From positions 63,676,001 through 63,740,000 of the forward strand of contig NC_058368.1 of NCBI RefSeq assembly GCF_018350175.1: 64,000 nt of DNA, in the 5' to 3' direction. The number at the start of each line of letters is the position of its first letter. The first letter of the stretch is position 1. This document shows positions 1,482 to 51,902 of this stretch, piece by piece. This stretch comes from Felis catus. Taxonomy: Eukaryota. A program made the translations under genes and the position numbers. The notes beneath the pieces were generated by a model. That model was not told the origin of the DNA, did no database searches, and saw nothing but the letters and a program-made list of their open reading frames with translations.

Positions 1482-2608
1482 ATTTAAATGTAACTTTTTA
1501 AGAAAAATATATTTTAAAATAGAAAACGAAAACAATGGACACTTAAGAGTTACACATTGATTCAGGCAAAATATTATAGTATTTCATTTTAATAAAAGGA
1601 GAGTTTTGGATTCCTAAGGGACAGGGGCATCTTAGGCCACAAGGAGCAGATTATAAATCTGTAAATGGTGCTCACACTATCTGAGTTTAGTCCTGGTGCT
1701 CTTCACAATGCCATGCTCTCACAACACTTTTATAACTCTCTCACAATCTGGAGATTTAGTTTTTAAGGAGTTTACTAACTTTCATAACTTTTTCAGTAAA
1801 GTTGTTACAATGGATTGTTTTATTTTATTTCTTCTGGAAGAGAGTGATTTGTTGAAAATACCTTAGTGACTTCTGATCTTATATCCTGTGTAATAGTGTC
1901 TTGTGGAGGATAAGTTATGTTCAGTCATTGTACCTTGTATTTCCAGCTGCTCCTTATCCCAGCACCATGGGGAAGTAAAGAAAAGCTGACTCATTCATTT
2001 ACACATTTTTACCTTAACCACTTACGTTTTTATGATATGGCAATTACATACCCATCAAAGATAGGGTGATAATAAGGATTCACAGGTGGGGCAAGTTGGT
2101 GTTTACCTGTGTAGCTAAAGCCTGAATGATTTTCAGAGGAAGGTAATTATTTGAAATTGCAAACTGGTTTTGGATAAAGCTGTAGAATACATTAGGTTGA
2201 ATAGAGAAAACTTAGTTCCAAGAAAAAGAGAACTTAGAAAAGAGTCACATAAAAATAGAAAAATTTAATGAAAAAAGGTTAGGAAAATTTGGGGGTCTGG
2301 AAGAACAAGAATGGAAATTGCAAGTGAAGGACAATGTGCATTGACTGGCTGGGGTTGGGTGGGAGATTTTGATCATGAAATCCAGACTTCTTGGAGAGTG
2401 GAGTCAGTGAAAAGAACACCAGCTTATATAATGGGCGCTCAACTTACAAAAATCCCTATGTTTACAACTTGTTATAGTATGAAATATAAACTGATTTTAA
2501 AAATGTAAAATCAGTTAATGAAAAATGAGCAGGCTCACAGTGGTGTGATTACTATATACAGTAGATAGATTGCCTGTATCCGTAAATTATTTAATAAGAA
2601 AATGTGTG

Positions 2609-3018
2609 TGTGATGGGTAATTTTATGTGTCAACTTGGCGAGTCTCTGGTGTCCAGATGTTTGGTTCAAAACCAGTATGGTTGTTGCTATGAAAGTATTT
2701 TTTAGATGCAATTAACATATCAGCAGACTTTGAATAAATCAGGTTACCTCCACAATGTGAGTACACCTCACCCAATCAGCTGAAGGCCTCAAGAGAAACA
2801 CTAAAGTTTCCTGAGGAAGAGGGAATTCTGCCTCCAGAATGCCTTAGGATGCATGCCTGTGGCATCAGCTCTTTTCTGGATACCTAGCCTGCAGGCCTGC
2901 CCTGAAGATTTTGGAATTGTCAGCCTCCACAATGGCATAAGCTAATTCCTTAAAATAAATCTCTCTCTCTTTATATATCAGTCTATTGGTTGTTTCCTGG
3001 AGAACTCTAAGTAATATA
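2609..3018 (+). mobile_element. ERV-L solo LTR, MLT2 family
   Basis: Starts tgtgatgggtaattttatgtgtcaacttgg, contains aataaa at ~2955 and ends ctggagaactctaagtaatata. These match MLT2 termini as I recall them. Confidence 0.8.
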
Positions 3019-4145
3019 ATGTGGATAACTTATTTTGAAACATTAATAAGGTAATCCTATCATTGCTTACTACATTAAGGTAGTTTTACAGATATGCAAA
3101 AAAATTAGTGATTTCCTATAGAAATAATTTGGGATTTTTGGTAACTATTCAAGTTATAACCAAAAATCATTAAAATTTAATGAGTAGGGATTTGGGAATT
3201 TAAGTTAGTTTTCATAATTTAATTTTAAATTCTAATAATTCTATTTATATGTAATAAATTATAATGCTTTCATTGATATTCTTGTGGAGAGTTAAAATAA
3301 GCCCCATACTGAATTATAACAGCGATTAGATTATCTTTTGTCACTTGGAACAAGGCCAAACTGCTTATTTACCTTTGTCATGTGCAGAAGACTTTCCATT
3401 TCTAGAATTGTGAGGCTGGCAGTGTTCCATAAGATGTGAAACGAATTCAGAAAAATTAATGTAAAACAGAGTCTTCACACAATGCAGATCTAGTGGGGTT
3501 CCTCTGCTTTTCGTTTAAGTTCCACAGTGTTCATGGTTGTCCTAGGAATTGGAGCTGAAAGCAACTTCTGGAATGTTTGAGAAAGAAATATAAATTCATG
3601 CCAAAGAATACTGCCAGTGCCTTTTTATAGGATAGCCTAGTTAAACATGAGAGACATCATAGGGATGGACAGAAATATTGTTTATTTTCCTCTCTTCCTT
3701 CTTTGTTAAAATTTTCATTTCTTGTCAGTGTGTAATGTCTCTTACATACTTTTGTCTATAACAGTGATGTTTAATATTGATTGATTTAAATTACTGTGTT
3801 CATTAGTTTCAGATGTACAATATAATGATTCAGCAATTCTGTACATTACCCAGTGCTCATTACAAGAGCGCTCCTTAATCCCCATCACCTATTTAACCCA
3901 TTCCCTTATTGCCCTCTCCTCTGGTAACCATTAGTTTTTTTTCTCTATAATTAAGAATCTGTTTCTTAATTTATCTCTATTTTCCCCCCATTGCTCCTTT
4001 ATTTTGTTTTTTAAATTCTAAATATGAGTGAAATTATATGCTATTTTTCTTTGACTTACTGCACTTAGTGTTATACACTCTAGCTCTATTCATGTCCTTG
4101 CAAATGGCAAGATTTCATTCTTTTTGTGACTGAATAATATTCCAT

Positions 4146-4146
<1 letters not shown>

Positions 4147-4180
<34 letters not shown>
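4147..4180. repeat. (TG)n microsatellite inside the L1 ORF2 end
   Basis: Direct reading. Confidence 0.97.
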
Positions 4181-4186
<6 letters not shown>

Positions 4187-5469
4187 CCACCTCTTTTTCC
4201 GTGGATACTTGGGCTGCTTCCACAATTTGGCTATCACAAATAACGCTGCTATAAACATAGGGATGCATCTATCTCTTTGAATTTGTATTTTTGTATACTT
4301 TGGTAAATACCCAGTAATGCAATTACTGGATTCTAGGGTAGTTCTATTTTTAACTTTTTGAGGAACCTCCATACTGTTTTCCAGAGTGGCTGCACCAGTT
4401 TGCATTCTCACCAACAGTGCACGAGGGTTCCTTTTCTCCGCATCCTCGCCAACACTTGTTTCTTGTGTTGTTGATGTCAGCTATTCTGACAGGTGTGAGG
4501 TGATATATCATTGTAGTTTTGATTTGTATTTCCCTAATGATGAGTGATGTTGAGCATCTTTTCACGTGTCCGTTGGTCATCTGTACGTCTTTTTTGGAGA
4601 AATGTCTGTTCATGTTTTCTGCCCATCTTTTTAATTGGGTATTTGTTTTTTGAATATTGAGCTGTATAAGTTATTTATTTTGGATAATAACCCCTTACCA
4701 GAGATGTCATTGGCAAATATCTCCTCCCATTCCACAGGTGGCCTTTTAGTTTTGTTGATTGTTTTCTTTGCTGTACAGAAGCTTTTTATTTTGATGTAGT
4801 CCCAATCGTTTATTTTTGCTTGTTTCCCTTGCTTCAGGAGACCTATCTAGAAAGAAGATTTCTTTCTGTTTATTCTTTGCACATATATTTTTGATATATG
4901 GTTACTATTAGTTTGTATATATCCTCTTCTGCATATAGCAGTCTGTATTAAATGGATGGTCATCTAAGTTTAACCCATTCTTTACTCCTCCCCACATTTT
5001 AGGTATATGTTGTCATATTTTACATCCTTTTATTTTGTGAGTTCCTTGAATGACTTTTACAGAGATATTTGTATTTACTGCATTTGTGTTTCCCACCATC
5101 ATACTGTCACTTTCCATCTCTGCTTTCCACTCAGAGTCCCTTTTATTACTTTTTGCAGGGTTGGTTTAGTGGTCCTAAACTCCTTTAGTTTTTGTTTGTC
5201 TGAGAAACTCTTTGCCTCTCCTTCTATTCTGAAGGACAACCTTGCTGTATAGAATATTCTTAGCTACAGATTTTTCTCATTCAGCAATCAGAATAGATCA
5301 TGCCACTCCTTTTTGGTTTGGAGAGTTTCTGCTGAAAAATCCCTTGCTAGACTTATGGGTTTTCCTTTGTATGTTAGTGTCTTCTTTTGTCTTGCTGCTT
5401 TTAAATTTTTTTCTTTATCACTATATTTTGCCAATTTAATACAGTATGTCCTGGTGTGGATATGCTTTT

Positions 5470-5473
5470 GATT

Positions 5474-5512
<39 letters not shown>

Positions 5513-5723
5513 TTTTTCATTTGAGAGAGAGGGAGAGAGAGAGAGGAGGGGAGAGAGGGTGTAGAGTCTGAAGTGGGGATTGAACTCATTCGAAGCAGGG
5601 CTCAAGCTCACCCAAAGTGGGGTTGAAGCTCACCCAATGTAGGCAGAACTCGAGATCACAAACTGTGAGATATGACCTGAGCTGAAGTTGGATGTTTAAC
5701 TGACTGAGCCACTCAGGCATTCC
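5470..5723 (-). mobile_element. CAN-SINE variant with a tandemly repeated 22-bp B-box segment, inserted in L1 ORF1
   Basis: (TTTA)n tail, (GA)n, head ctgagccactcaggca; TSD-like tgcttttg on both sides. Confidence 0.9.
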
Positions 5724-27522: not shown

Positions 27523-27951
27523 TTTTTTTGGTATCTGTTTTTTAGAATTCTTTTTTCTTTAATTTAAATACAAGTTAGTTAACATATAGTGTAATAATGA
27601 TTTCAGGAATAGGATTTAGTGATTCATCACTTACATACAACACCCAGTGCTCATCCCAACAAGTGCCCTCCTTAATGTCCATCGCCTATTTAGCCCATCC
27701 CCCCACCGAACACCCCACCAGGATCCCTCAGTTCTCTGTATTTAAGAGTCTCTTATGGTTTGTCTCCCTTTCTGTTTTTATCTTATTTTTGCTTCGTAGG
27801 TTCATCTGTTTTGTTTCTTAAATTCCACATGTGAGTGAAATCATATGATATTTCTCAGACTGATTTATTTTGTTGAGCATAATACGCTCTAGTTCCATCC
27901 ACATTGCTGCAAATGGTAAGATTTCATTCTTTTTGATTGCCAAGTAATATT

Positions 27952-27993
<42 letters not shown>

Positions 27994-30525
27994 CATTTTC
28001 ATTATCCATTCAGCAGTCAATGGACATTGGGCTCTTTCCATACTTTGGCTACTGTCAGTAGTGCTGCTATAAACATTAGGGTGCATGTGCCTCTCTGAAT
28101 CAGCATTTTTGTATCCTTTGGGTAAATACCTAGTAGTGGAATTGCTGGGTTGTAGGCTAGTTCTATTTTCAATTGAGGAACCTCCATACTGTTTCCCAGA
28201 GTGGTTGCGCCAGGTTGCCTTCCCACCAGTGGTTCCAAAGGGTTCCTCTTTCTCTGTATCCTCACCAACATCTCTTGTTGCCTGAGTTGTTAATTTTAGC
28301 CACTCTGACAGGTGTGAAGTGGTATCTCATTGTGGTTTTGATTTGTATTTCCCTGAGGATGAGCAATGTTGAGCATTTTTTCATATGTCTGTTAGCCATC
28401 TGGATGTCTTCTTTGGAAAAGTATCTATTTGTGTCTTTTGCCAATTTATTCATTGGATTATTTGGGTTTTTTTGGGGGGGGGTGTTGAGTTTCATAAGTT
28501 GTTTATAGATTTTGGATACCAACCTTTTATCTGACATGTCATTTCCAATATCTTCTCCCATTCCATTGCTTGCCTTTTAGTTTTGCTGATTGTTTCCTTT
28601 GCTGTGCAGAAGCTTCTTATCCTGATGAGATCCCAACAGTTCAGTTTTGCTTTTGTTTCCCTTGTCTCCAGAGATATGTCTAGTAAGAAATTTCTTGGCT
28701 GAGGTCAAAGAGGTTGTTGGCTATATGTTTGTGGGTCCATTTCTGGGTTGTTTTCTCCCCTAAGATTTTGATGGCTTCCTGTCTTATGTTTTGGTCTTTC
28801 ATTCATTTTGAGTTTATTTTTGTGTGTGGTGTAAGAAAGTGGTCCGGGTTTCTTCTGCATCTCTGTCCAGTTTTCCCAACACCATTTGCTGAGGAGACCG
28901 TCTTTTTTCTATTGGATATTCTTTCCCACTTTGTCAAAGGTTAGTTGGCTATATGTTTGTGGATCCATTTCTGGGTTCTCTATTCTCTTCCATTGATCTA
29001 TGTTTGCTTTTCTTTTTCAACATTACTTTGGCTATTTGGGGTTTTTTCTGGTTCTGTACAAATTTTAGGAGTGTTTGTTCTAGTTCTGTGAAGAATGTGG
29101 GTGTTATTTTGATAGGGATTGCATTGAATATGTAGATTGTTTTGGATAGTATTGACACTTTAACAACATTTGTTCTTCCAAGCCATGAGCATGGAATGTT
29201 TTTTCCATTTGTTTGTGTTTTCTTCAATTTCTTTCATAAGCTTTGTATAGTTTTCAGTGTATAGATTTTTTACCTGTTTGGTTAGGTTTATTCCTAGGTA
29301 TTTTATAGTTTTTGGTGCAATTGTAAATGGGATTGATTCCTCGATTTCTCCTTCTCCTGCTTTATTATTGATGTATAGAAATGCAACCGATTTCTGTACA
29401 TTGATTTTATATTTTGTGACTTTGCTGAATTCACGTATCAGTTCTAGCATTTTTTTTTGGTGGAATCTATGGGTTTTCCACACAGAGTATGATGTCATCT
29501 GTGAAAAGTGAAAGTTTGACTTCCTCCCTGCCAGTTTGGGTGTTTTTAATTTCTTTTTGTTGTCTGATTGCTGAGGCTAGGACTTCTAATACTACATTAA
29601 ATAACAGTGGTGAGAGTGGACATCCTTGTCATGTTCCTGTCTTTAGGGGGAAAGCCCTCAGTTTTTCCTCAATGGGATGATATTAGCTGTGGGTCTTTTA
29701 TATATGGCCTTTATCATCTTGAGGTATGTTCCTTCTATCCCTACTTTCTTGAGGGTTTTTATCAAGAAAGGATGCTATATTTTATCAAATGCTTTTTGTA
29801 CATCTATTGAGAGGATCATGTGGTTCTTATCCTTTCTTTTGTTAATGTCATGTATTACATTGATTGATTTGTGGATATTGAACCAACCCTGCAGCCCAGG
29901 AATAAATCCCACTTGATCATGGTGAATAATCCCTTTATTTTATTGTTGGATTCAGTTTGCTAGTATCTTGTTGAGAATTTTTGCACCCATGTTTATCAGG
30001 GAAATTGGTCTGTAGTTCTTTTTAGTGGGGTCTTTGGCTGGTTTTGGAATCAAGGTAATGCTGGCCTTGTAGAATGAGCTCAGAAATTTTCCTTCCATTT
30101 CTATTTTTTGGAACAGCTTCAAAAGAATAGGTGTTAAATCTTCTTTAAATGTTTGGTAGAATTCTCCTGGAAAGCCACCTGGCCCTGGACTCTTGTTTGT
30201 TGGGAGATTTTTGATTACTGATACGATTTCTTGACTGGTCATGGGCCTGTTCAAATTTTCTATTTCTTCCTGTTTGAGTTTTGGTAGTTTATATGTTTCT
30301 AGGAATTTGTCCATTTCTTCCAGCTTGCCCAATTTGTTGGCATATAATTGGTCATAATATTCTCTTATTATTGTTTGTATTTCTGCAGTGTTGGTTGTGA
30401 TCTCTCCTCTTTCATTCATAATTTTATTTACTTGGGTCCTTTCCTTTTTATTTTTGATAAATCTGGCTAGGGGTTTATCAATTTTGTTAATTATTTCAAG
30501 GAACCAGCTCCTGGTTTCTCTGATC
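27523..30525 (-). mobile_element. 5'-truncated carnivore LINE-1 (ORF2 from upstream of the RT domain to the 3'UTR), disrupted
   Basis: ORFs 29952-30419 ([16 protein letters not shown]...NYRPISLIN), 29160-29498 (IKYLGINL), 28262-28561 and 28017-28271 are ORF2 pieces. Degenerate TSD agacatagaatatttta (27506-27522) / agacataaagtagttta (30526-30542). Confidence 0.93.
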
Positions 30526-33351: not shown

Positions 33352-34215
33352 GTTTCTAGTCAAACTTTAAATTTTGAGGTAATTGTAGATTCACACACAG
33401 TTGTAAGAAATCATACAGCCAGATCCCATGACCCTTTACCCACTTTCCCACAGTGGTGATGTTTTACAAAACTATAGTATAATATCACAACCAGGATTCT
33501 GACATTGATAAAGTCAGGATACAGAATGATTTATTAGCCAATGATTCCTCATGTTGCCATTTTATAACTATACCCACCTGCCTCCCACTATCCTTGACCT
33601 CTGGCCACCCCTACTCTGTTCTCCATTTTTATAATTTTGTCATTCCAAGAATGCCATATAAATGGAATCCTATAGTATATGACTTTTAGGGATTGGCTGT
33701 GTTTTTACTTGTCATAATTTCCTTCTGCCAACTAAATGCCAAGATTTATCCAGGTTGTTGTATCATTAGTTTATCTGTCACTATTGCTGAGGAACATTCT
33801 ATGCTATGCATGTACCTTAGTTTGTTTTGCAGTCATTGAAGAACATCTGGGTTGTTTCTAGTTTTTTCCATTAGGAATAAAGCTGCCATGAACATGTGTA
33901 CAGATTTTTGGATAAACACAGTTTTCATTACTCTGAGATAAATACCTAGGAGTGCAATTGCTGGATCTTACGGTAATTGCCTGTTCAGTTGTATAAGAAA
34001 CTACAAAATTGTTTTTCAGAGTGGCTGTACCATTTTACGTTCCCACCAGCAACGTGTGAGTGATTCACTTTCTCTGTGTCCTTGCCAGCATTTGTGTTAT
34101 TACTACCTTTACTTTAGCTGTTCTGATAGGTGTGTACTGATAACTCATTGTGTTTTCAATTTGCATTTCTTTTATGGCTAATGATGTTGAACATCTTTTT
34201 CATGTGCTCATTTCT
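33352..34215 (-). mobile_element. Old L1 (L1MB/L1MC-type) 3' end
   Basis: ttgaggtaattgtagattcacacacagttgtaagaaat 3'UTR, plus ORF2 end (agagtggctgtaccattttacgttcccaccagcaa). Confidence 0.85.
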
Positions 34216-44015: not shown

Positions 44016-44293
44016 TATTTCATAACTAGAAACTTATGCCTCTTAATTCCCTTTATCCATTTTTCACTACCCCAATTCTTCTTTCCTTTTGCAACCACCG
44101 GTCTGTTCTCTTTATGAGTCTGGGTTTTGTTTTATTTTGTTTGTTTGTTTGTTGATTCCACAAGTCAGTATAATCATGAGTTATTTGTCTTTTTCTGTCT
44201 GCCGTATTTCACTTAACATAATACCCTCAATGTCCATCCGTGTTGTTGAAAGTGGCAAGATTTTATTCTTTTTTATGGCTGAGTAGTATTGCA

Positions 44294-44353
<60 letters not shown>

Positions 44354-45964
44354 CATGTCTTTATCCATTCATTTATGGATGGACACTTAAGTTGTTGCTA
44401 TATCTTGACTATTGTATATAATACTCCAGTGAACAGAGGGTTGCATATATCTCTTTGAATTAGTATTTTTGTTTTCTTCAGATAGATAACAGAAGTGGAA
44501 TTGCTGGATCAAATGATAGCTCTGTTTTTAATTTGCGGGGGAGAGCCCCTATACTCTTTCCCATAGTGGCTGTACCAATTTACATTCCTACCAACAGTGC
44601 ACAAGGGTTCCTTTTTTTCCATGTCTTCACCAACACTTGTCTTTTTGATAACAGCCATTCTGATATGTATATGGTGATATCCCATTGTGGTTTTGATTTT
44701 TATTTCCCTGATAATTAGTGTTGTTGAACCATTTTTCATGTGCCTGTTGGCCATCTTTATGTCTCTAGTGCAAAAATGTCCATCTCTGTCCTCTATTTTT
44801 AATCACTTTATTTTTTTTTTGTTATTGATTTGTATAGTTCCTGTATATATTTTGGATATTAATCTCCTATTGGATGAATTGTTTGCAAGTATCTTCCTCC
44901 ATTTAGTAGGTTGGTTTTTTGTTTTGTTGATGGCTTCCGTCACTGTGCAGAAGCTTTTTAGTTTGATGTATTCCCATTTATTTTTGCTTTTGTTTCCCTT
45001 CTGTTTGGAGTTGGATCCAAAAACCATTAAGACCAATGTCAAAGAGCTTACTGCCTGTGTTTTCTTCTAGGGTTTAATGGTTTCAGATCTAGCATTCAAG
45101 TGTTTAACCAATTTTGAGTTGATTTTCACATATAGTGTTAAGATCATGATCCAGTTTCATTCTTTTGCAAGTTACTGTCCAGTCTTTCCAACACCATTTA
45201 TTGAGATTATCCTTTCCCCATTGTATATTCTTGCCTCCTTTGTCATGAATTAATTGACTATATATGTACGTAGGTTCATTTTAGGGCTCTTTGTTCTATT
45301 CCATTGATCTTTGTGTCTTTTTTATGCTAGTATCATACAGTTTAGTATAGTTTGAAATCAGGGAGAATGTTACCTCCAGCTTTATTTTTCTTTCTCAGGG
45401 TCGTTTTGACTATTGGGGTCTTATGTGGTTCCAAACAAATTTTAGAAGTATTTGTACTAATTCTATGAAAAATGCCATTGGAATGTTGATAGAGATTGTA
45501 TTAAATCTGTAGATTGCTTTGGGTAGTATGGTCCTTTTAACAATATTAATTTTTTGAATTCAAATGGAATATTTTCCCATTTATTTGTGTCATCTTCAAT
45601 CCCTCTCTCAATGTCTATAATTTTCATTGTACAGGTGTTTTAACTACTTGGTTAAATTTATTCTTAGGTATTTTATTCTTTTTGATGTGGTTATAAATTG
45701 GATTATTTTCTTGATTTCTCTTTCTGATAGTTTGTTAGTGTAGAGAAGAAACAACACATTTTTTTGTATATTAATTTTATATCCTGCAACTTTCCTAAAT
45801 TAATTTATTAGTTCTCATTTTTTTTTGGTGGAGTCTTAAGGGCTTTTTCTATATAGCATCATGTCATCTGCAAATAGTAACAATGTTACTTCTTCGTTTC
45901 CAATTTGGATGCCTTTTATTTATTTTTTTCCCTAATTGCTCTGGCTAGGACTTCCAGTACTATT

Positions 45965-46003
<39 letters not shown>
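45965..46003. repeat. (TTG)13 microsatellite at the L1 tail/TSD boundary
   Basis: Direct reading. Confidence 0.95.
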
Positions 46004-46006
<3 letters not shown>

Positions 46007-46248
46007 TAGTATTTTTATTTTTTTTATTTTTTTTAAATTTATTGTCAAATTGCTTTCCATACAACACCCAGTGCTCATCCCAAAAGGTGCCCTCCTCGAT
46101 ACTCATCACCCACCCTCCCCTCCCTCCCACCCCCCCATCAGCCCTCAGTTTATTCTCAGTTTTTAAGAGTCTCTTATGCTTTGGCTCTCTCCCACTCTAA
46201 CCTCTTTTTTTTTTCCTTCCCCTCCCTCATGGGTTTCTGTTAAGTTTC

Positions 46249-47624
46249 TCAGGATCCACATAAGAGTGAAAACATAAGGTATCTGTCTTTCTCTGTATGG
46301 CTTATTTCACTTAGCATCACACTCTCCAGTTCCATCCACGTTGCTATAAAGGGCCATATTTCATTCTTTCTCATTACCATGTAGTACTCCATTGTGTATA
46401 TAAACCACAATTTCTTTATCCATTCATCAGTTGATGGACATTTAGGCTCTTTCCACCATTTGGCTATTGTTGAGAGTGCTGCTATAAACATTGGGGTACA
46501 AGTGGCCCTATGCATCAGTACTCCTGTATCCCTTGGGTAAATTCCTAGCAGTGCTACTGCTGGGCCATAGGGTAGGTCTGGGTCATAGGGTAGGTCTGCC
46601 CTGATCTTTATTATTTCTCTTCTTCTGGTGGGTTTGGGGTGTCTTTGCTGTTCTGCTTCTATTTCCTTTAGGTGTGCTGTTAGATTTTGTATTTGGGATT
46701 TTTCTTGTTTCTTGAGATAGGCCTGGATTGCAATGTATTTTCCTCTCAGGACTGCTTTCACTGCATCCCAAAGCGTTTGGATTGTTGTATTTTCATTTTC
46801 GTTTGTTTCCATATATTTTTTAATTTCTTCTCTAATTGCCTGGTTGACCCATTCATTCTTTAGTAGGGTGTTCTTTAACCTCCATGCTTTTGGAGGTTTT
46901 CCAGACTTTTTCCTGTGGTTGATTTCAAGCTTCCTAGCATTGTGGTATGAAAGTATGCATGGTATGATTTCAATTCTTGTATACTTATGAAGGGCTGGTT
47001 TGTGACCCAGAATGTGATCTATCTTGGAGAATGTTCCATGTGCACTCGAGAAGATATATTCTGTTCCTTTGGGATTCAGAGTTCTAAATATATCTGTCAA
47101 GTCCATCTGATCTAATGTCTCATTCAGGGCCCTTGTTTCTTTATTGACCGTGTGTCTAGATGATCTATCCATTTCTGTAAGTGGAGTGTTAAAGTCCCCT
47201 GCAATTACCACATTCTTATCAATAAGGTTGCTTATGTTTGTGAGTAATTGTTTTATATATTTGGGGGCTCCTGTATTTGGCACATAGACATTTATAATTG
47301 TTAGCTCTTCCTGATGGATAGACCCTGTGATTATTATATAATGCCCTTCTTCATCTCTTGTTACAGCCTTTAATTTAAAGTCTAGTTTGTCTAATATGAG
47401 TATGGCTACTGCAGCTCTCTTTTGACTTCCAGTAGCATGATAAATAGTTTCCATCCCCTCACTTTCAATCTGAAGGTGTCCTCAGGTCTAAAATGAGTCT
47501 CTTGTAGACAGCAAATAGATGGGTCTTGTTTTTGTATCCATTCTGATACCCTGTGTCTTTTGGTTGGCGCATTTAGTCCATTTACGTTCAGAGTTATTAT
47601 AGAAAGATACGGGTTTAGAATCAT
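46249..47624 (-). pseudogene. L1 ORF2 derivative: APE endonuclease domain fused in frame to the ORF2 C-terminal ~110 aa; one frameshift near 47450
   Basis: MILNPYLSIITLNVNGLN start at 47624; motifs LQETH, IAGDFNTPL and SKIDHILGH; ...RRREIIKIRA|DLPYDPDLPYGPAVALLGIYP...LLCGS*. There is no RT FADD motif and no CCHC knuckle. Confidence 0.9.
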
Positions 47625-47674
47625 TGTGATGTCTGTAGGTTTTATGCTTGTAGTGATGTCTCTGGTACTTTGTC

Positions 47675-48602
47675 TCACAGGATCCCCCTTAGGATCTCTT
47701 GTAGGGCTGGTTTAGTGGTAACGAATTCCTTCAGTTTTTGTTTGTTTGGGAAGACCTTTATCTCTCCTTCTATTCTAAATGACAGACTTGCTGGATAAAG
47801 GATTCTCGGCTGCATATTTTTTCTGTTCATCACATGGAAGATTTCCTGCCATTCCTTTCTGGCCTGCCAAGTTTCAGTAGAGAGATGGGTCACGAGTCTT
47901 ATAGGTCTCCCTTTATATGTTAGAGCACGTTTATCCCTAGCTGCTTTCAGAATTTTCTCTTTATCCTTGTATTTTGCCAGTTTCACTATGATATGTCGTG
48001 CAGATTGATTCAGGTTACGTCTGAAGGGAGTTCTCTGTGCCTCTTGGATTTCAATGCCTTTTTCCTTCCCCAGATCAGGGAAGTTCTCAGCTATTATTTC
48101 TTCAAGTACACCTTCAGCACCTTTCCCTCTCTCTTCCTCCTCTGGAATACCAATTATGCGTAGATTATTTCTCTTTAGTGCATCACTTAGTTCCCTAATT
48201 TTCCCCTCATACTCCTGGATTTTTTTATCTTTTTCTCAGCTTCCTCTTTTTCCATAATTTTATCTTCTAGTTCACCTATTCTCTCCTCTGCCTCTTCAAT
48301 CCGAGCCATGGTCAAGTTCACCTAGTTTCTCCTCTGCCTCTTCAATCCGAGCTGTGGTCATCTCCATTTTATTTTGCAGCTCATTTGTAGCATTTTTTAG
48401 CTCCTCCTGACTGTTCCTTAGTCCCTTGATCTCTGTAGCAACAGATTCTCTGTTGTCGTCTATACTGTTTTCAAGCCCAGCGATTAATTTTATGACTATT
48501 ATTCTAAATTCACTTTCTGTTATATTGTTTAAATCCTTTTTGATCAGTAGCTGTCGTTATTTCCTGGAGATTCTTTTGAGGGGAATTCTTCCGTTTGGTC
48601 AT
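47675..48602 (-). pseudogene. L1 ORF1 (RNA-binding chaperone), frameshifted
   Basis: Start MTKRKNSPQKNLQEITTA at 48602; C-terminus ...QPRILYPASLSFRIEGEIKVFPNKQKLKEFVTTKPALQEILRGIL*. A 46-bp tandem duplication and small indels break the frame. Confidence 0.9.
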
Positions 48603-49506
48603 TTTGGGTAGTCCCTGGAGTGGTGTGGAACTGCGGAGCACTTCCCCTGTGCTGTCTTGAATAACTTTGCGTTGGTGGACAGGCCGCAGTCAGACCTGAT
48701 GTCTGCCCCAGCCCACCGCTGGGGCCACAGTCAGACTGGTGTGTGCCTTTTCTTCCCCTCTCCTAGGGGTGGGATTCACTGTGGGGTGGCATGGCCCGTC
48801 TGGGCTACTTGCACAATGCCAGGCTTGTGGTGCTGGAGATCTGGCATATTAGCTGGGGTGGATTGGCAAGGTGCAGAGGGGTGGGAGGGGCAGGCTCAGC
48901 TAGCTTATCCTTAGGTGATCGGCTTTGGGAGGGGCCCTGAGGCTCCGGAAGGGAGTCAGACCCGCCACAGGAGGGATGGATCCGCAGAAGCACAGTGTTG
49001 GGTATTGGCTCGGTGCAAGCAAGTTCCCTGGCAGGAACTGGTTCCCTTTGGGATTTTGGCTGGGGGATAGGCGAGGGAGATGGTGCTGGCGAGCGCCTTT
49101 GTTCCCCGCCAAGCTGAGCTCTGTCGTCTGGGGCTCAGCAACTCCCTCCTGTTGTCCTCCAGCCCTCCCGCTCTCCGAGCAGAGCTGTTAATTTATAACC
49201 TTCCAGATGTTAAGTCCCGCTTGCTGTCAGAACATACTCCGTCCAGCCCCTCCACTTTTGCAAGCCAGACTCGGGGGCTCTGCTTGGCCGGCGGGCTGCC
49301 CCTCCGCCCGGGCTCCCTCCTGCCAGTCTGTGGAGCGCGCACCGCCTCTCTGCCCTTCCTACCCTCTTCCATGGGCCTCTCGTCTATGCTTGGCTCCAGA
49401 GAATCCATTCTGCTAGTCTTCTGGACGTTTTCTGGGTTATTTAGGCAGGTGTAGGTGGAATCTAAGTGATCAGCAGGACGCGGTGAGCCCAGCGTTCTCC
49501 TAAGCC
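48603..49506 (-). promoter_or_regulatory. L1 5'UTR / internal Pol II promoter, GC- and CpG-rich
   Basis: The only extended GC-rich segment with many CpGs in the window; lies directly upstream of ORF1. Confidence 0.8.
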
Positions 49507-50652
49507 CTTCCAGTACTATTTTGAATAAAAATGGGGATTGTGGGCATTGTTACCTTGTTCCTGATCTTAGAGGAAAAGCTTTCAGATTTCACTACTGAAT
49601 ATGATGTTATCTGTGGGTTTGTCATATATAATCATAATATATTGAGGTATGTTCTCTCTGTACCCCCTTTGTTGAGAGTTCTTGTCATAAATGGATATTG
49701 AACTTTGTCAGATGCTTTTTCTGCATTTTTGATATGATCACATGATTTTTATCTTTTATTTTGTTAATATGGTCATCACACTGATTGATTTGTGGATGTT
49801 GCATCATCCTTGCATCCCTGGAATAAATTCCACTTGATTGATCATGGTGTATGACCATGACCTTTAAATGTATTGTTGAATTCAGTTTGCTAATATCTTG
49901 TTGAGGATTTTTGCATCTGTCTTCACCAGGAATATTGGCCTATAATTATATTTTTTGTAGTGTCTTTGTCTGGTTTTTGTATCAGGGTAATATTAGCCTC
50001 ATAAAATGTGTTTGGAAGCTTTTCTTCTTCATTTTTTTTTTTTTTTTATGAAGAGTTTGAGAAAGATAGTTATATAATCTTTGGATGTTTGGTAGAATTC
50101 ATCAGTGAAGCCCTTTGGTCCTGGACGAAAGTTTTTGATTACTGACTCAGTCTCCTTACTGGTGATTGGTCTATTCAGATTCTCTATTTCTTCATGATTC
50201 AGCCTTAGATGGTAAATTTCTAGGAATTTATCCATTTCTTCTAGGTTGTCTGATTTGTTGGCAAATTATTCATAGTAGTCTTTCAATGATTTATTTCTAT
50301 TTCTGTGCTGTTATGTCTTCTCTTTAATATGTTTTTATTTATTTGAGCCCTCTCTTTGCTGCCTTGATGAGTCCAGCTAAAAGTTTGTCAATTTTATTTA
50401 TCTTTACAAAAAATCATCTCTCAGTTTCATTGATCTTTTCTATTGTCTTTTTAGTTTCTATTTCATTTATTTCCACTGTGTTCTTTATTTCCTTCCTTCT
50501 ACTATCTTTGGGCAGTGTATATTCTTCTCTTTCTAGTTCATTTAGGTGTAAAGTTAAGTTTTTTATTTGAGATAGGCCTGTAGTGCTTTGTATTTTTCTC
50601 TTAAAACCATTTTTTGCTGCATTGCATAGATTTTGGTATGTTATTTGTAGGT

Positions 50653-50869
50653 TTTTAAAAAAATTTTTTTCTTAACATTTATTCATTTTTTGAGAGACAG
50701 AGACAGCATAGGGGAGGGACAGAGAGAGAGGGAAACATTGAATCTGAAGCAGGCTCTAGGCTCTGAGCTATCAGCACAGAGCCCAACGCAGGGCTAAAAC
50801 CCACAAACTGCGAGATCATGACCTGAGCCAAATTTTAATGCTTAACCGACTGAACCACCCAGGTGCCCC
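50653..50869 (-). mobile_element. CAN-SINE inside L1 ORF2
   Basis: SINE body; TSD-like tgtaggtttt / tgtagggtttt. Confidence 0.93.
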
Positions 50870-51902
50870 TGTAGGGTTTTTTTTTTTTTTAATTTATCCT
50901 TTGATTTCTTCTATGACCCAATAGTTGTTCAGTAACATGTTGTTTAATGTCCATGTATTTGTTTTTCCAGTTTTCTTCTTGTACCTGATTTCATGCCGTA
51001 GTGGTTAGAAAAAGTGCTTGATATGACTTTGATCTTGGATTTATTGAGACTTGTTTTATAGTGCAAAATGTGACCTCTCCTGGAGAATGTTCTGTGGCAC
51101 TTGAGAAGAATGTGTATTCTGCTTTTGGATGGAATGTTTGTATATATATGGTCCATCTGATCTGATGTGTCATTTAAAGCCAGTGTTTCCATATTGGTTT
51201 TCCGTCTGGATGATGTAGTAAGTGGGATGTTAAAATTCCTACTATATTGTATTGCTGTCAGTTTTTCCCTTTTTTTCATGTTAATACTTGCTTTATATAT
51301 TTTGGTGATTTTATGTTTAGTCCATATATATTTATAAATGTTATATCTTTATTGGATTGACTCTTTTATCATTATGTAGTATCCCTCTTCATCTTTTGTT
51401 ACAGCTTTTGTTTTAAAGTTAATTTTGTATGATACAAGTTTAGCTACACCAGCTTTCTTTTTGTCTCCATTTGCATGGTATATATTTTTCCATACCTTTA
51501 CTTTCAGTCTGTGTGTTTCCTTATACCTGAAGCAAGTCTTGGGTAGAAAGTATATAGATTTATGTTGTTTTTTTAATCCATTTAGTCATTCTGTGTCTTT
51601 TGATTGGAGAATTTAGTCCATTTACCTTTAAAGTCAACATTGATTAGGTATATATTTATTGCTATTTTGTCAATTATTTTCTGGCTGTTTCTCTAGTTCC
51701 TTTCTGTCCCTTTCTTCTTTTCCTGTGGTTTGATGATTTCCTTTAGTGTTATGTTTAGATTCCTTTCTTATTTTGTGTGTGTGTATTCACTGTAAGTTTT
51801 TGCTTTGTGGTTACCATTAGGTTCACACATATCATCCTATGTATATAATAGTCTATTTTAAGTTGTTGGAACTTAGATTTGAACACATATAATCTGCATT
51901 TT

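Follow-up and report, generated by a model that had tools for sequence, protein, structure and literature searches.

An old, decayed LINE-1 copy in the cat genome that lost its reverse transcriptase region in a single private rearrangement

Structure of the element and its insertion site

In the window, a 64,000-nucleotide stretch of Felis catus contig NC_058368.1, we find an L1 element of 3,539 bp on the minus strand (45968-49506). It is flanked by identical target-site duplications (TSDs; 17/17 nt, CTTCCAGTACTATTTTG, at 45951-45967 and 49507-49523), confirming the size and the perfect repeats given in the initial annotation. The features of the element and of the older L1 that surrounds it are as follows:

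44182-45950, minus strand: 3′ half of the older L1 that hosts the insertion (blastn of full-length relative L029 against the window)
45951-45967, minus strand: 3′ target-site duplication, a perfect 17-nt match to 49507-49523
45968-46248, minus strand: 3′UTR with AATAAA (46043-46038), A-rich tail, and (CAA)n run (read from the sequence; the 3′UTR aligns with relatives)
46249-46561, minus strand: C-terminal segment of ORF2 past the duplication, to the stop at 46251-46249 (homology to relatives; same frame as the endonuclease part)
46562-46597, minus strand: 18-nt tandem duplication, AGACCTACCCTATGACCC / AGACCTACCCTATGGCCC, encoding DLPYDP DLPYGP (relatives have one copy)
46595-46597, minus strand: deletion joint with AGA microhomology (native breakpoint sequences in six full-length relatives)
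46595-47624, minus strand: 5′ part of ORF2, endonuclease domain and linker, ending at KIRA (Exo_endo_phos; private indels and substitutions)
47675-48602, minus strand: broken ORF1 remnant, ATG 48602-48600, stop 47677-47675 (Pfam Transposase_22 and Tnp_22_dsRBD)
48266-48357, minus strand: 46-bp tandem duplication in the ORF1 coiled-coil region (two copies, 41/46 identical)
48603-49506, minus strand: L1 5′UTR (homology to 5′UTRs of full-length L1s elsewhere in the genome)
49507-49523, minus strand: 5′ target-site duplication, CAAAATAGTACTGGAAG in element sense (perfect 17-nt direct repeat of 45951-45967)
49524-51628, minus strand: 5′ half of the same older L1 (blastn of L029 against the window)

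Its assignment to L1 is borne out by the 5′UTR, the ORFs, and the 3′UTR, all of which are homologous at the nucleotide level to full-length L1s elsewhere in this genome. Identity to these elements is 88-91% over the ~900-nt 5′UTR and 92-94.5% over the stretch from ORF1 to the endonuclease, and the 3′ part is 92-94% identical to six relatives. The identities over this 550-nt 3′ part (92.4-93.9%) resolve too little to tell whether the two parts stem from different source elements through an intermolecular switch. Both ends had been described as intact; a comparison of 5′ ends places that of the element ~12-17 nt short of the termini of its longest relatives.

The hallmarks of TPRT are all present, namely the 17/17 TSD, an A-rich 3′ tail, and a T-rich/A nick site. 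On the bottom strand, the nick reads TATTTTG/AATAA, which we take to be of the T-rich/A type that resembles the L1 endonuclease preference. The insertion target was the reverse transcriptase (RT) region of the host L1, which is ~69% identical to young L1, and the empty site can be reconstructed with the flanking translation FNIVLE/VLARAIR.

The deletion joint and the decay of both reading frames

Translation over the joint (...EIIKIRA/DLPYDPDLPYGPAVALLGIYP) places the endonuclease and C-terminal parts in the same frame, as the initial annotation had it. Among six full-length relatives, the native sequence at the 5′ breakpoint is GATCAGAGCAGA/AATAAAC, and that at the 3′ breakpoint is AAAAAT/AGACCTACCCTATGACCC. 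Because these native sequences show AGA at both breakpoints, the joint has a 3-nt microhomology, bearing out the ~3 nt of AGA proposed earlier. The KIRA end corresponds to about codon 343 of ORF2, and ~109 native codons lie 3′ of the joint. The deleted interval measures 2,444-2,466 nt in the four relatives that have no SINE insertion there, or ~2.45 kb of ORF2. It contains RVT_1, as mapped in L029, and RVT_1 found no match among the four scanned proteins; the RT had rightly been reported missing. This absence is a defect of the present copy and no bar to its assignment to the L1 family.

The joint also carries an 18-nt tandem duplication of AGACCTACCCTATGACCC (46597-46562), overlooked initially, whose copies differ at 1 nt. 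Its first base lies exactly at the joint, so that the two rearrangements have one common departure point.

Two established routes to altered L1 copies can be set aside. The native sequences allow four registers of the joint (AG..AT, GA..TA, AA..AG, and AA..GA). Splicing of the SpIRE type is ruled out because no register is GT-AG, GC-AG, or AT-AC, and the earlier description of the joint as not GT-AG is thus correct in every register. Twin priming is likewise ruled out, as alignment to each relative shows the two segments sharing one strand and keeping their order, with no inversion.

The remaining coding sequence is heavily damaged. ORF1 still matches Transposase_22 (E 3.8e-24) and Tnp_22_dsRBD (E 4e-25), but it is not intact: compared with six relatives, it carries three private frameshifting indels (−5 nt at ~48549, the +46-nt tandem duplication, and −4 nt at ~48227) as well as a private in-frame deletion of 3 nt at ~48005. 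The 46-bp duplication is absent in 17/17 relatives examined. Its copies differ at 5/46 positions, and two of these differences arose by independent decay of a single ancestral CpG. Within the ORF2 remnant, matches to Exo_endo_phos and Exo_endo_phos_2 are above the cut-off and are split between two frames. The ORF2 ATG lies at 47624-47622, and the private loss of 1 nt at ~47450 shifts the initial ~59 codons into another frame. Consequently, the 401-codon open stretch starts at an internal ATG rather than at the ATG of ORF2. The 5′ part of ORF2 has also suffered a private 3-nt deletion at ~47055, and a private substitution at 46947 (D to Y) has turned the conserved SDH motif into SYH. With frameshifts in both ORFs and a mutated SDH motif, this copy is unable to produce the protein proposed for it. 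The element is without function today.

An open stretch of 401 codons is unexceptional when compared to equally decayed relatives, six of which have longest stop-free frames of 275-438 aa. The private changes of the element comprise 17 nonsynonymous and 6 synonymous substitutions (23 in 1,180 nt). This 17:6 pattern and the comparable open stretches in relatives rule out selection on the open frame; in ORF1 and ORF2, with their frameshifts and this ratio, we found neither retained coding capacity nor purifying selection. The terminal branch leading to the element is 0.022. On an assumed neutral rate, its age is roughly 10 My. The element is an old fossil, decaying neutrally.

Copy number of the joint and origin of the deletion

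Across the 2.43-Gb genome, a 30-mer spanning the joint, searched with up to 2 mismatches, has a single match, the window’s own. A 23-mer with up to 3 mismatches returned the same site plus 10 matches, all at exactly 3 mismatches. These ten are not relatives: nine of them have no L1 similarity within ~200 nt, and the tenth (L006) is a 5′-truncated L1, starting at the AGACC nucleotide, without the upstream part or the joint. Repeats were detectable by this search, since the native sequences flanking the joint, used as controls, gave 4,641 and 20,620 matches. The joints of the 18-nt duplication and of the 46-bp ORF1 duplication each have one match genome-wide, and no independent insertion with the same internal joint and different TSDs occurs beyond this one locus in 2.43 Gb. 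Metagenome contigs gave 0 matches to the joint, an uninformative result because felid DNA is not expected there, and a general rather than cat-specific literature search found no published description of a felid L1 family with this joint.

Parts of the stretch were also seen in 23 of 24 sequencing runs with 13 organism labels, at shares of 0.35-0.56 that generic L1 words could explain and that speak neither for nor against presence or expression of the joint.

The initial annotation had weighed a one-off template jump or deletion against a non-autonomous felid L1 family copied from a master element. The first alternative is supported. The family is not supported in this genome, where the joint is single-copy; the genome-wide search that had been named as its check gave exactly the unique joint that had been named as evidence against it.

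We favor, with some reserve, one endonuclease-dependent event in which an L1 inserted into the RT region of a much older L1, accompanied by a one-off template switch during reverse transcription. As to the timing and mechanism of the deletion, we infer the following course. Reverse transcription would have proceeded through the 3′UTR and the final ~110 codons of ORF2 before coming to a halt at the 5′ edge of AGACCTACCCTATGACCC. The RT would have slipped back once via an AG match and copied the same 18 nt again, and would then have switched via the 3-nt AGA match to KIRA, a site located ~2.45 kb upstream, either on that L1 RNA or on a different one. From KIRA, copying would have resumed nearly to the 5′ end, and the 46-bp duplication in ORF1 is possibly another slip in the same event. 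The product would never have had an RT; it left no detectable progeny and has since decayed neutrally.

Several observations are in line with this course, among them the insertion hallmarks, the uniqueness of all three joints, and the neutral decay. The two parts of the element keep the order and orientation they have in full-length relatives and meet at AGA. Private tandem duplications of at least 15 nt number 0 in six full-length relatives of similar age (~35 kb in total), compared to 2 in this 3.5-kb copy, a comparison that covers only six relatives. Both duplications appear to be old, as the divergence between their copies (1/18 and 5/46) is consistent with the element’s own divergence, although a measure based on 1 and 5 differences has little power and does not date the deletion relative to the insertion. 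The one useful detail here is that the 18-nt re-copy and the 2.45-kb jump depart from the same nucleotide, in keeping with an RT that halts at a single point on its template and switches through matches of 2-3 nt. Should the deletion prove to date from the insertion itself, this would be a clean natural instance of a double template switch.

It is possible, but on balance unlikely, that a full-length L1 inserted first and was shortened afterward. A later break or replication error in ORF2 would have been repaired by microhomology-mediated end joining of the polymerase-theta type, removing ~2.45 kb and adding the 18-nt copy of the flank. A short microhomology deletion combined with a short flank-copied insertion is also the polymerase-theta end-joining signature of a chromosomal break, and the joint, with its 3-nt microhomology and flank-templated insertion of 15-18 nt, fits this description. 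The element is old enough to have gained other private indels of 1-5 nt, and private deletions of 14-42 nt occur in relatives of comparable age. However, 42 nt is also the largest private deletion in the six relatives, and none is of kilobase scale. A priori, a loss of kilobase size restricted to a single 6-kb element should be rare. Moreover, an accident of its own would have to be invoked for the second, unlinked tandem duplication that this copy carries in ORF1, and the copies of the duplications have already diverged, indicating that the event was not recent.

The deletion could also predate the insertion, although we consider this improbable. The locus would then be the sole surviving offspring, mobilized in trans, of an already deleted source L1 that has since been lost, was never fixed, or is missing from the assembly. 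The insertion hallmarks and the near-complete 5′ end would suit such an origin, implying that a deleted RNA was handled by the L1 machinery at least partly in trans, and the in-frame joint would have permitted a fusion protein at that time. Still, searches of the 2.43 Gb allowing up to 2-3 mismatches turned up the joint nowhere else, and neither the 18-nt nor the ORF1 duplication joint has a second copy. Sister copies, diverged by ~2-3% each, should fall within these mismatch limits. Less probable again is a small endonuclease/C-terminus mini-ORF2 lineage whose deleted RNA was mobilized in trans and which either amplified in another felid lineage or had a source that was lost or is missing from the assembly, with this locus as its sole trace here.

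Least credible is a non-autonomous felid L1 family that amplifies from a master encoding ORF1p together with a mini-ORF2p (endonuclease plus C-terminus), the latter nicking DNA or acting as a competitor of ORF2p: the in-frame joint (a 1-in-3 chance) and ends like those of a transcribable, retrotransposable L1 are set against one copy each of the joint and of the adjoining duplication, a neutral substitution pattern, frameshifts in both ORFs, a mutated SDH motif, and an open frame within the length range of decayed relatives, and the single-copy result refutes such a family for this genome.

The element is thus one old decayed LINE-1 copy that lost its RT region in a single private rearrangement, and not a founder or member of a new non-autonomous family, which makes it ordinary. 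It adds a further case of L1 insertions ending up defective and matters little beyond that. As it has no progeny in this genome, it raises no new question on non-autonomous L1 families.

Comparison with known systems

Internally rearranged L1 insertions are known from cell-culture reports. The present element resembles internally deleted or rearranged L1s in combining L1 ends, a TSD, and a tail with a co-linear internal deletion at short microhomology. Internal deletions are counted among the usual forms of L1 decay in one report (PMC13192797), and another depicts, among the outcomes of L1 activity, an RT that switches templates at the primary RT end (PMC11702581). By contrast, the L1 deletions quantified in a long-read study of tumors are small, with a median of 14.5 bp, and linked to twin-priming inversions (10.1101/2024.08.27.596794), whereas ~2.45 kb was lost here with no inversion.

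HAL1 (half-L1) elements share with our element an L1 origin, a retained ORF1, the lack of an RT, and a dependence on ORF2p in trans. However, HAL1 elements are described as having ORF1 only and as occurring throughout mammals (PMC13756887, PMC4859970), whereas this element is a single copy in which the endonuclease and the C-terminal end of ORF2 are retained. SpIREs (spliced integrated retrotransposed elements) are similar in being L1 insertions without an internal segment that was already missing from the RNA or cDNA (PMC5860796). Whereas SpIREs result from the use of a splice donor and acceptor, the joint here has no splice dinucleotides and carries an 18-nt duplication that splicing would not give.

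The SIDEs of Drosophila, which are short R2 and R2/R1 elements with internal deletions, likewise consist of non-LTR 5′ and 3′ ends joined by such a deletion, and the paper describing them also reports RT template jumps in vivo (PMC3414825). SIDEs, however, exist in multiple copies and spread by TPRT, whereas our element shows no propagation.

Structure of the element and its insertion site

The element is an L1 of 3,539 bp on the minus strand (45968-49506) with a perfect 17-bp direct repeat at each side, matching the size and target-site duplications in the initial annotation. It is an L1 copy by all tests except the reverse transcriptase (RT), which it has lost.

Features of the element (window coordinates)
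45951-45967 and 49507-49523: perfect 17-bp direct repeats
49506-48603, minus: 5'UTR
ATG 48602 to stop 47675, minus: ORF1 remnant with the L1 RNA-binding domains Transposase_22 and Tnp_22_dsRBD
ATG 47624, minus: ORF2 start and APE-type endonuclease (Exo_endo_phos)
46597-46595, minus: joint, the ORF2 deletion junction
Stop at 46249, minus: ORF2 C-terminal part, last ~110 codons
AATAAA at 46043-46038, minus: 3'UTR
Beyond the 3'UTR, minus: A-rich tail passing into a (CAA)n stretch

The 3' nick on the bottom strand, TATTTTG/AATAA, is a T-rich/A site, which we take to be the kind preferred by the L1 endonuclease. Both flanks belong to one older L1 (44182-45966 and 49507-51628, minus strand), ~69–70% identical to the young L1 and broken in its RT region, where the empty site reads through as FNIVLE/VLARAIR. 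This host L1 spans roughly positions 1,900-5,650 of a full-length element, and its age may permit alignment of the site beyond felids. The window also holds an L1 fragment of intermediate age (27631-30525, minus strand; RT-to-3' region, 74–81% identical to the young subfamily) and smaller L1 pieces at 762-861, 4202-5437 and 33937-34207.

When we compared the element with other L1 copies of the same genome (its relatives, L025-L042), its 5' end lay ~12–17 nt inside the 5' termini of the longest ones, which read ...GGGAAGATGGC before GGCGTAGG; one relative, L036, has the same 5' start base. Most of the relatives reach ~12–17 nt further 5' than the element, and the GGAAG in its first bases (compared over 49494-49506) is similar to this extra stretch ...GGGAAGATGGC. 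The 5' join may reflect microhomology or a downstream transcription start.

The joint and its copy number

Our comparison set was the six full-length relatives (L025-L030), to which the element is 92–94.5% identical in the ORF1-endonuclease part and 92–94% in the 3' part. Their native 5' and 3' breakpoints read GATCAGAGCAGA/AATAAAC and AAAAAT/AGACCTACCCTATGACCCAGC; AGA is therefore common to both sides, bearing out the microhomology proposed earlier. The joint can be placed in four registers, and none shows splice dinucleotides, in line with the earlier view that it was not spliced. The absent interval measures 2,444–2,466 nt in the four relatives without a SINE there, the RVT_1 matches of relative L029 fall inside it, and the fusion is in frame (...EIIKIRA-DLPYDP...), so that the reported fusion and missing RT both stand. 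Twin priming was rejected because the 5' and 3' parts have the same orientation. Two of the six relatives carry private insertions of 230–235 bp starting GGGGCGCCTGGGTGGCGCAGTCGG, presumably a carnivore tRNA-derived SINE; these lie at nt ~4,936 of the L1 in L027 and nt ~3,077 in L028.

The initial description of the joint was correct but overlooked an 18-nt tandem duplication starting there. The unit, AGACCTACCCTATGACCC, begins with the joint's AGA and occurs at 46597-46580 and 46579-46562, the copies differing by one base and encoding DLPYDP DLPYGP; the relatives have a single copy.

In contrast to the proposal of a non-autonomous felid L1 family, or of a master encoding a mini-ORF2p, the window's own assembly (2.43 Gb, 71 contigs) contains the junction only once. 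This result had been named beforehand as refuting, and for this genome it refutes both the family and the master proposal. Pattern searches returned only the element's own match for the 30-nt joint (up to two mismatches) and for the joints of the 18-nt duplication and of a 46-bp duplication in ORF1 (up to three each), supporting the one-off reading. With up to three mismatches, a 23-nt joint gave its own match and 10 others, each at exactly three mismatches, and its reversed control gave 3. No L1 similarity was found within ~200 nt at 9 of these 10; the tenth, L006, was rejected as a joint carrier, being a 5'-truncated L1 without the upstream part. The 31-mer directly upstream of the joint and the native 3' breakpoint 28-mer gave 4,641 and 20,620 matches at up to two mismatches, so the search does register repeats. 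Metagenome contigs, where felid DNA is not expected, were also scanned for the joint and yielded no match. Copies of the subfamily lie ~2–3% from their common node in the tree, and sister copies would thus be expected one or two positions off, inside the mismatch limits used.

Of the 4,641 matches to the 31-mer, just 18 carry the element's version, CCAGAAGAAG... (46598-46628), without a mismatch, and one-mismatch copies among the matches listed mostly read GCAGAAG. The variant may mark a minor lineage, but copies with CCAGAAGAAG... are only 89.5–94.5% identical to the element. The L1 at L006 (G000:C11:176543560-176546582, match ~1501-1523, minus) starts at the exact AGACC nucleotide of the element's 3' breakpoint. 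This single case may reflect an RT stop or RNA end at AGACC, after an A-rich run. Upstream of its truncated start blastn found no L1 similarity; by eye, we take its surroundings to be the 3' end of an older L1.

Decay of the copy

The element is a fossil and no working system today. Private changes, called against the six relatives, include indels in ORF1 (−5 nt at ~48549, +46 nt at 48266-48357, −4 nt at ~48227, −3 nt at ~48005) and ORF2 (−1 nt at ~47450, −3 nt at ~47055). The 1-nt deletion cuts off the first ~59 ORF2 codons, among them the LNVNGLN and CLQETH stretches, which we take to carry endonuclease catalytic residues. Therefore the 401-codon stretch noted initially is indeed open but starts at an internal ATG, those first codons being out of frame. 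One private substitution (46947) turns the endonuclease's conserved SDH motif into SYH, and across 1,180 nt of the open stretch the private substitutions, 23 in all, divide into 17 nonsynonymous and 6 synonymous, about the neutral proportion. Decay is as advanced in the six relatives, whose longest stop-free frames span 275–438 aa, and the element's 410-aa stop-to-stop frame is therefore unremarkable.

The 46-nt gain lies in the coiled-coil region of ORF1 (minus strand) and is a tandem duplication found in none of 17 relatives. Its copies differ at 5 of 46 positions, and one ancestral CpG decayed independently in both (CA vs TG), so the duplication is old. In a 16-copy tree the element's terminal branch is 0.022 substitutions per site (relatives, 0.024–0.054). 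At a mammalian neutral rate of ~2.2e-9 per site per year, this gives a rough age of the order of 10 My.

Origin of the joint and comparison with known systems

We moderately favour template switching during target-primed reverse transcription over later break repair, none of the support being decisive. As synthesis moved along the RNA from 3' to 5', the cDNA would have ended at the complement of AGA, re-annealed once through an AG immediately 3' to the 18-nt unit, copied the unit again and, back at the same point, re-annealed through AGA ~2.45 kb upstream. We favour this because two rearrangements depart from one nucleotide and because ORF1 of the same copy also has a private, old tandem duplication. 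The six relatives argue likewise, with no private tandem duplication of at least 15 nt (0/6, ~35 kb) and private deletions of at most 42 nt, as does the presumed rarity of kilobase deletions confined to a single element. A later chromosomal break, closed by microhomology-mediated end joining with flank-templated insertion, would also fit the joint, and we regard it as the less likely alternative. A source locus already deleted and since lost is possible but unsupported, and very improbable.

The finding is ordinary, and the initial observation is confirmed with corrections. The element's architecture recalls non-autonomous derivatives formed by internal deletion, such as R2 SIDEs (PMC3414825) and HAL1, described as ORF1-only elements (PMC13756887, PMC4859970). 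The defining feature of both, multiple copies, is missing here. Nor is the element a SpIRE (PMC5860796), as its joint is no splice junction. Its deletion is also unlike those quantified in tumour L1s, which 10.1101/2024.08.27.596794 gives as short and linked to inversions. PMC13192797 includes internal deletions in ordinary L1 decay, and PMC11702581 counts template-switching RT among L1 outcomes.
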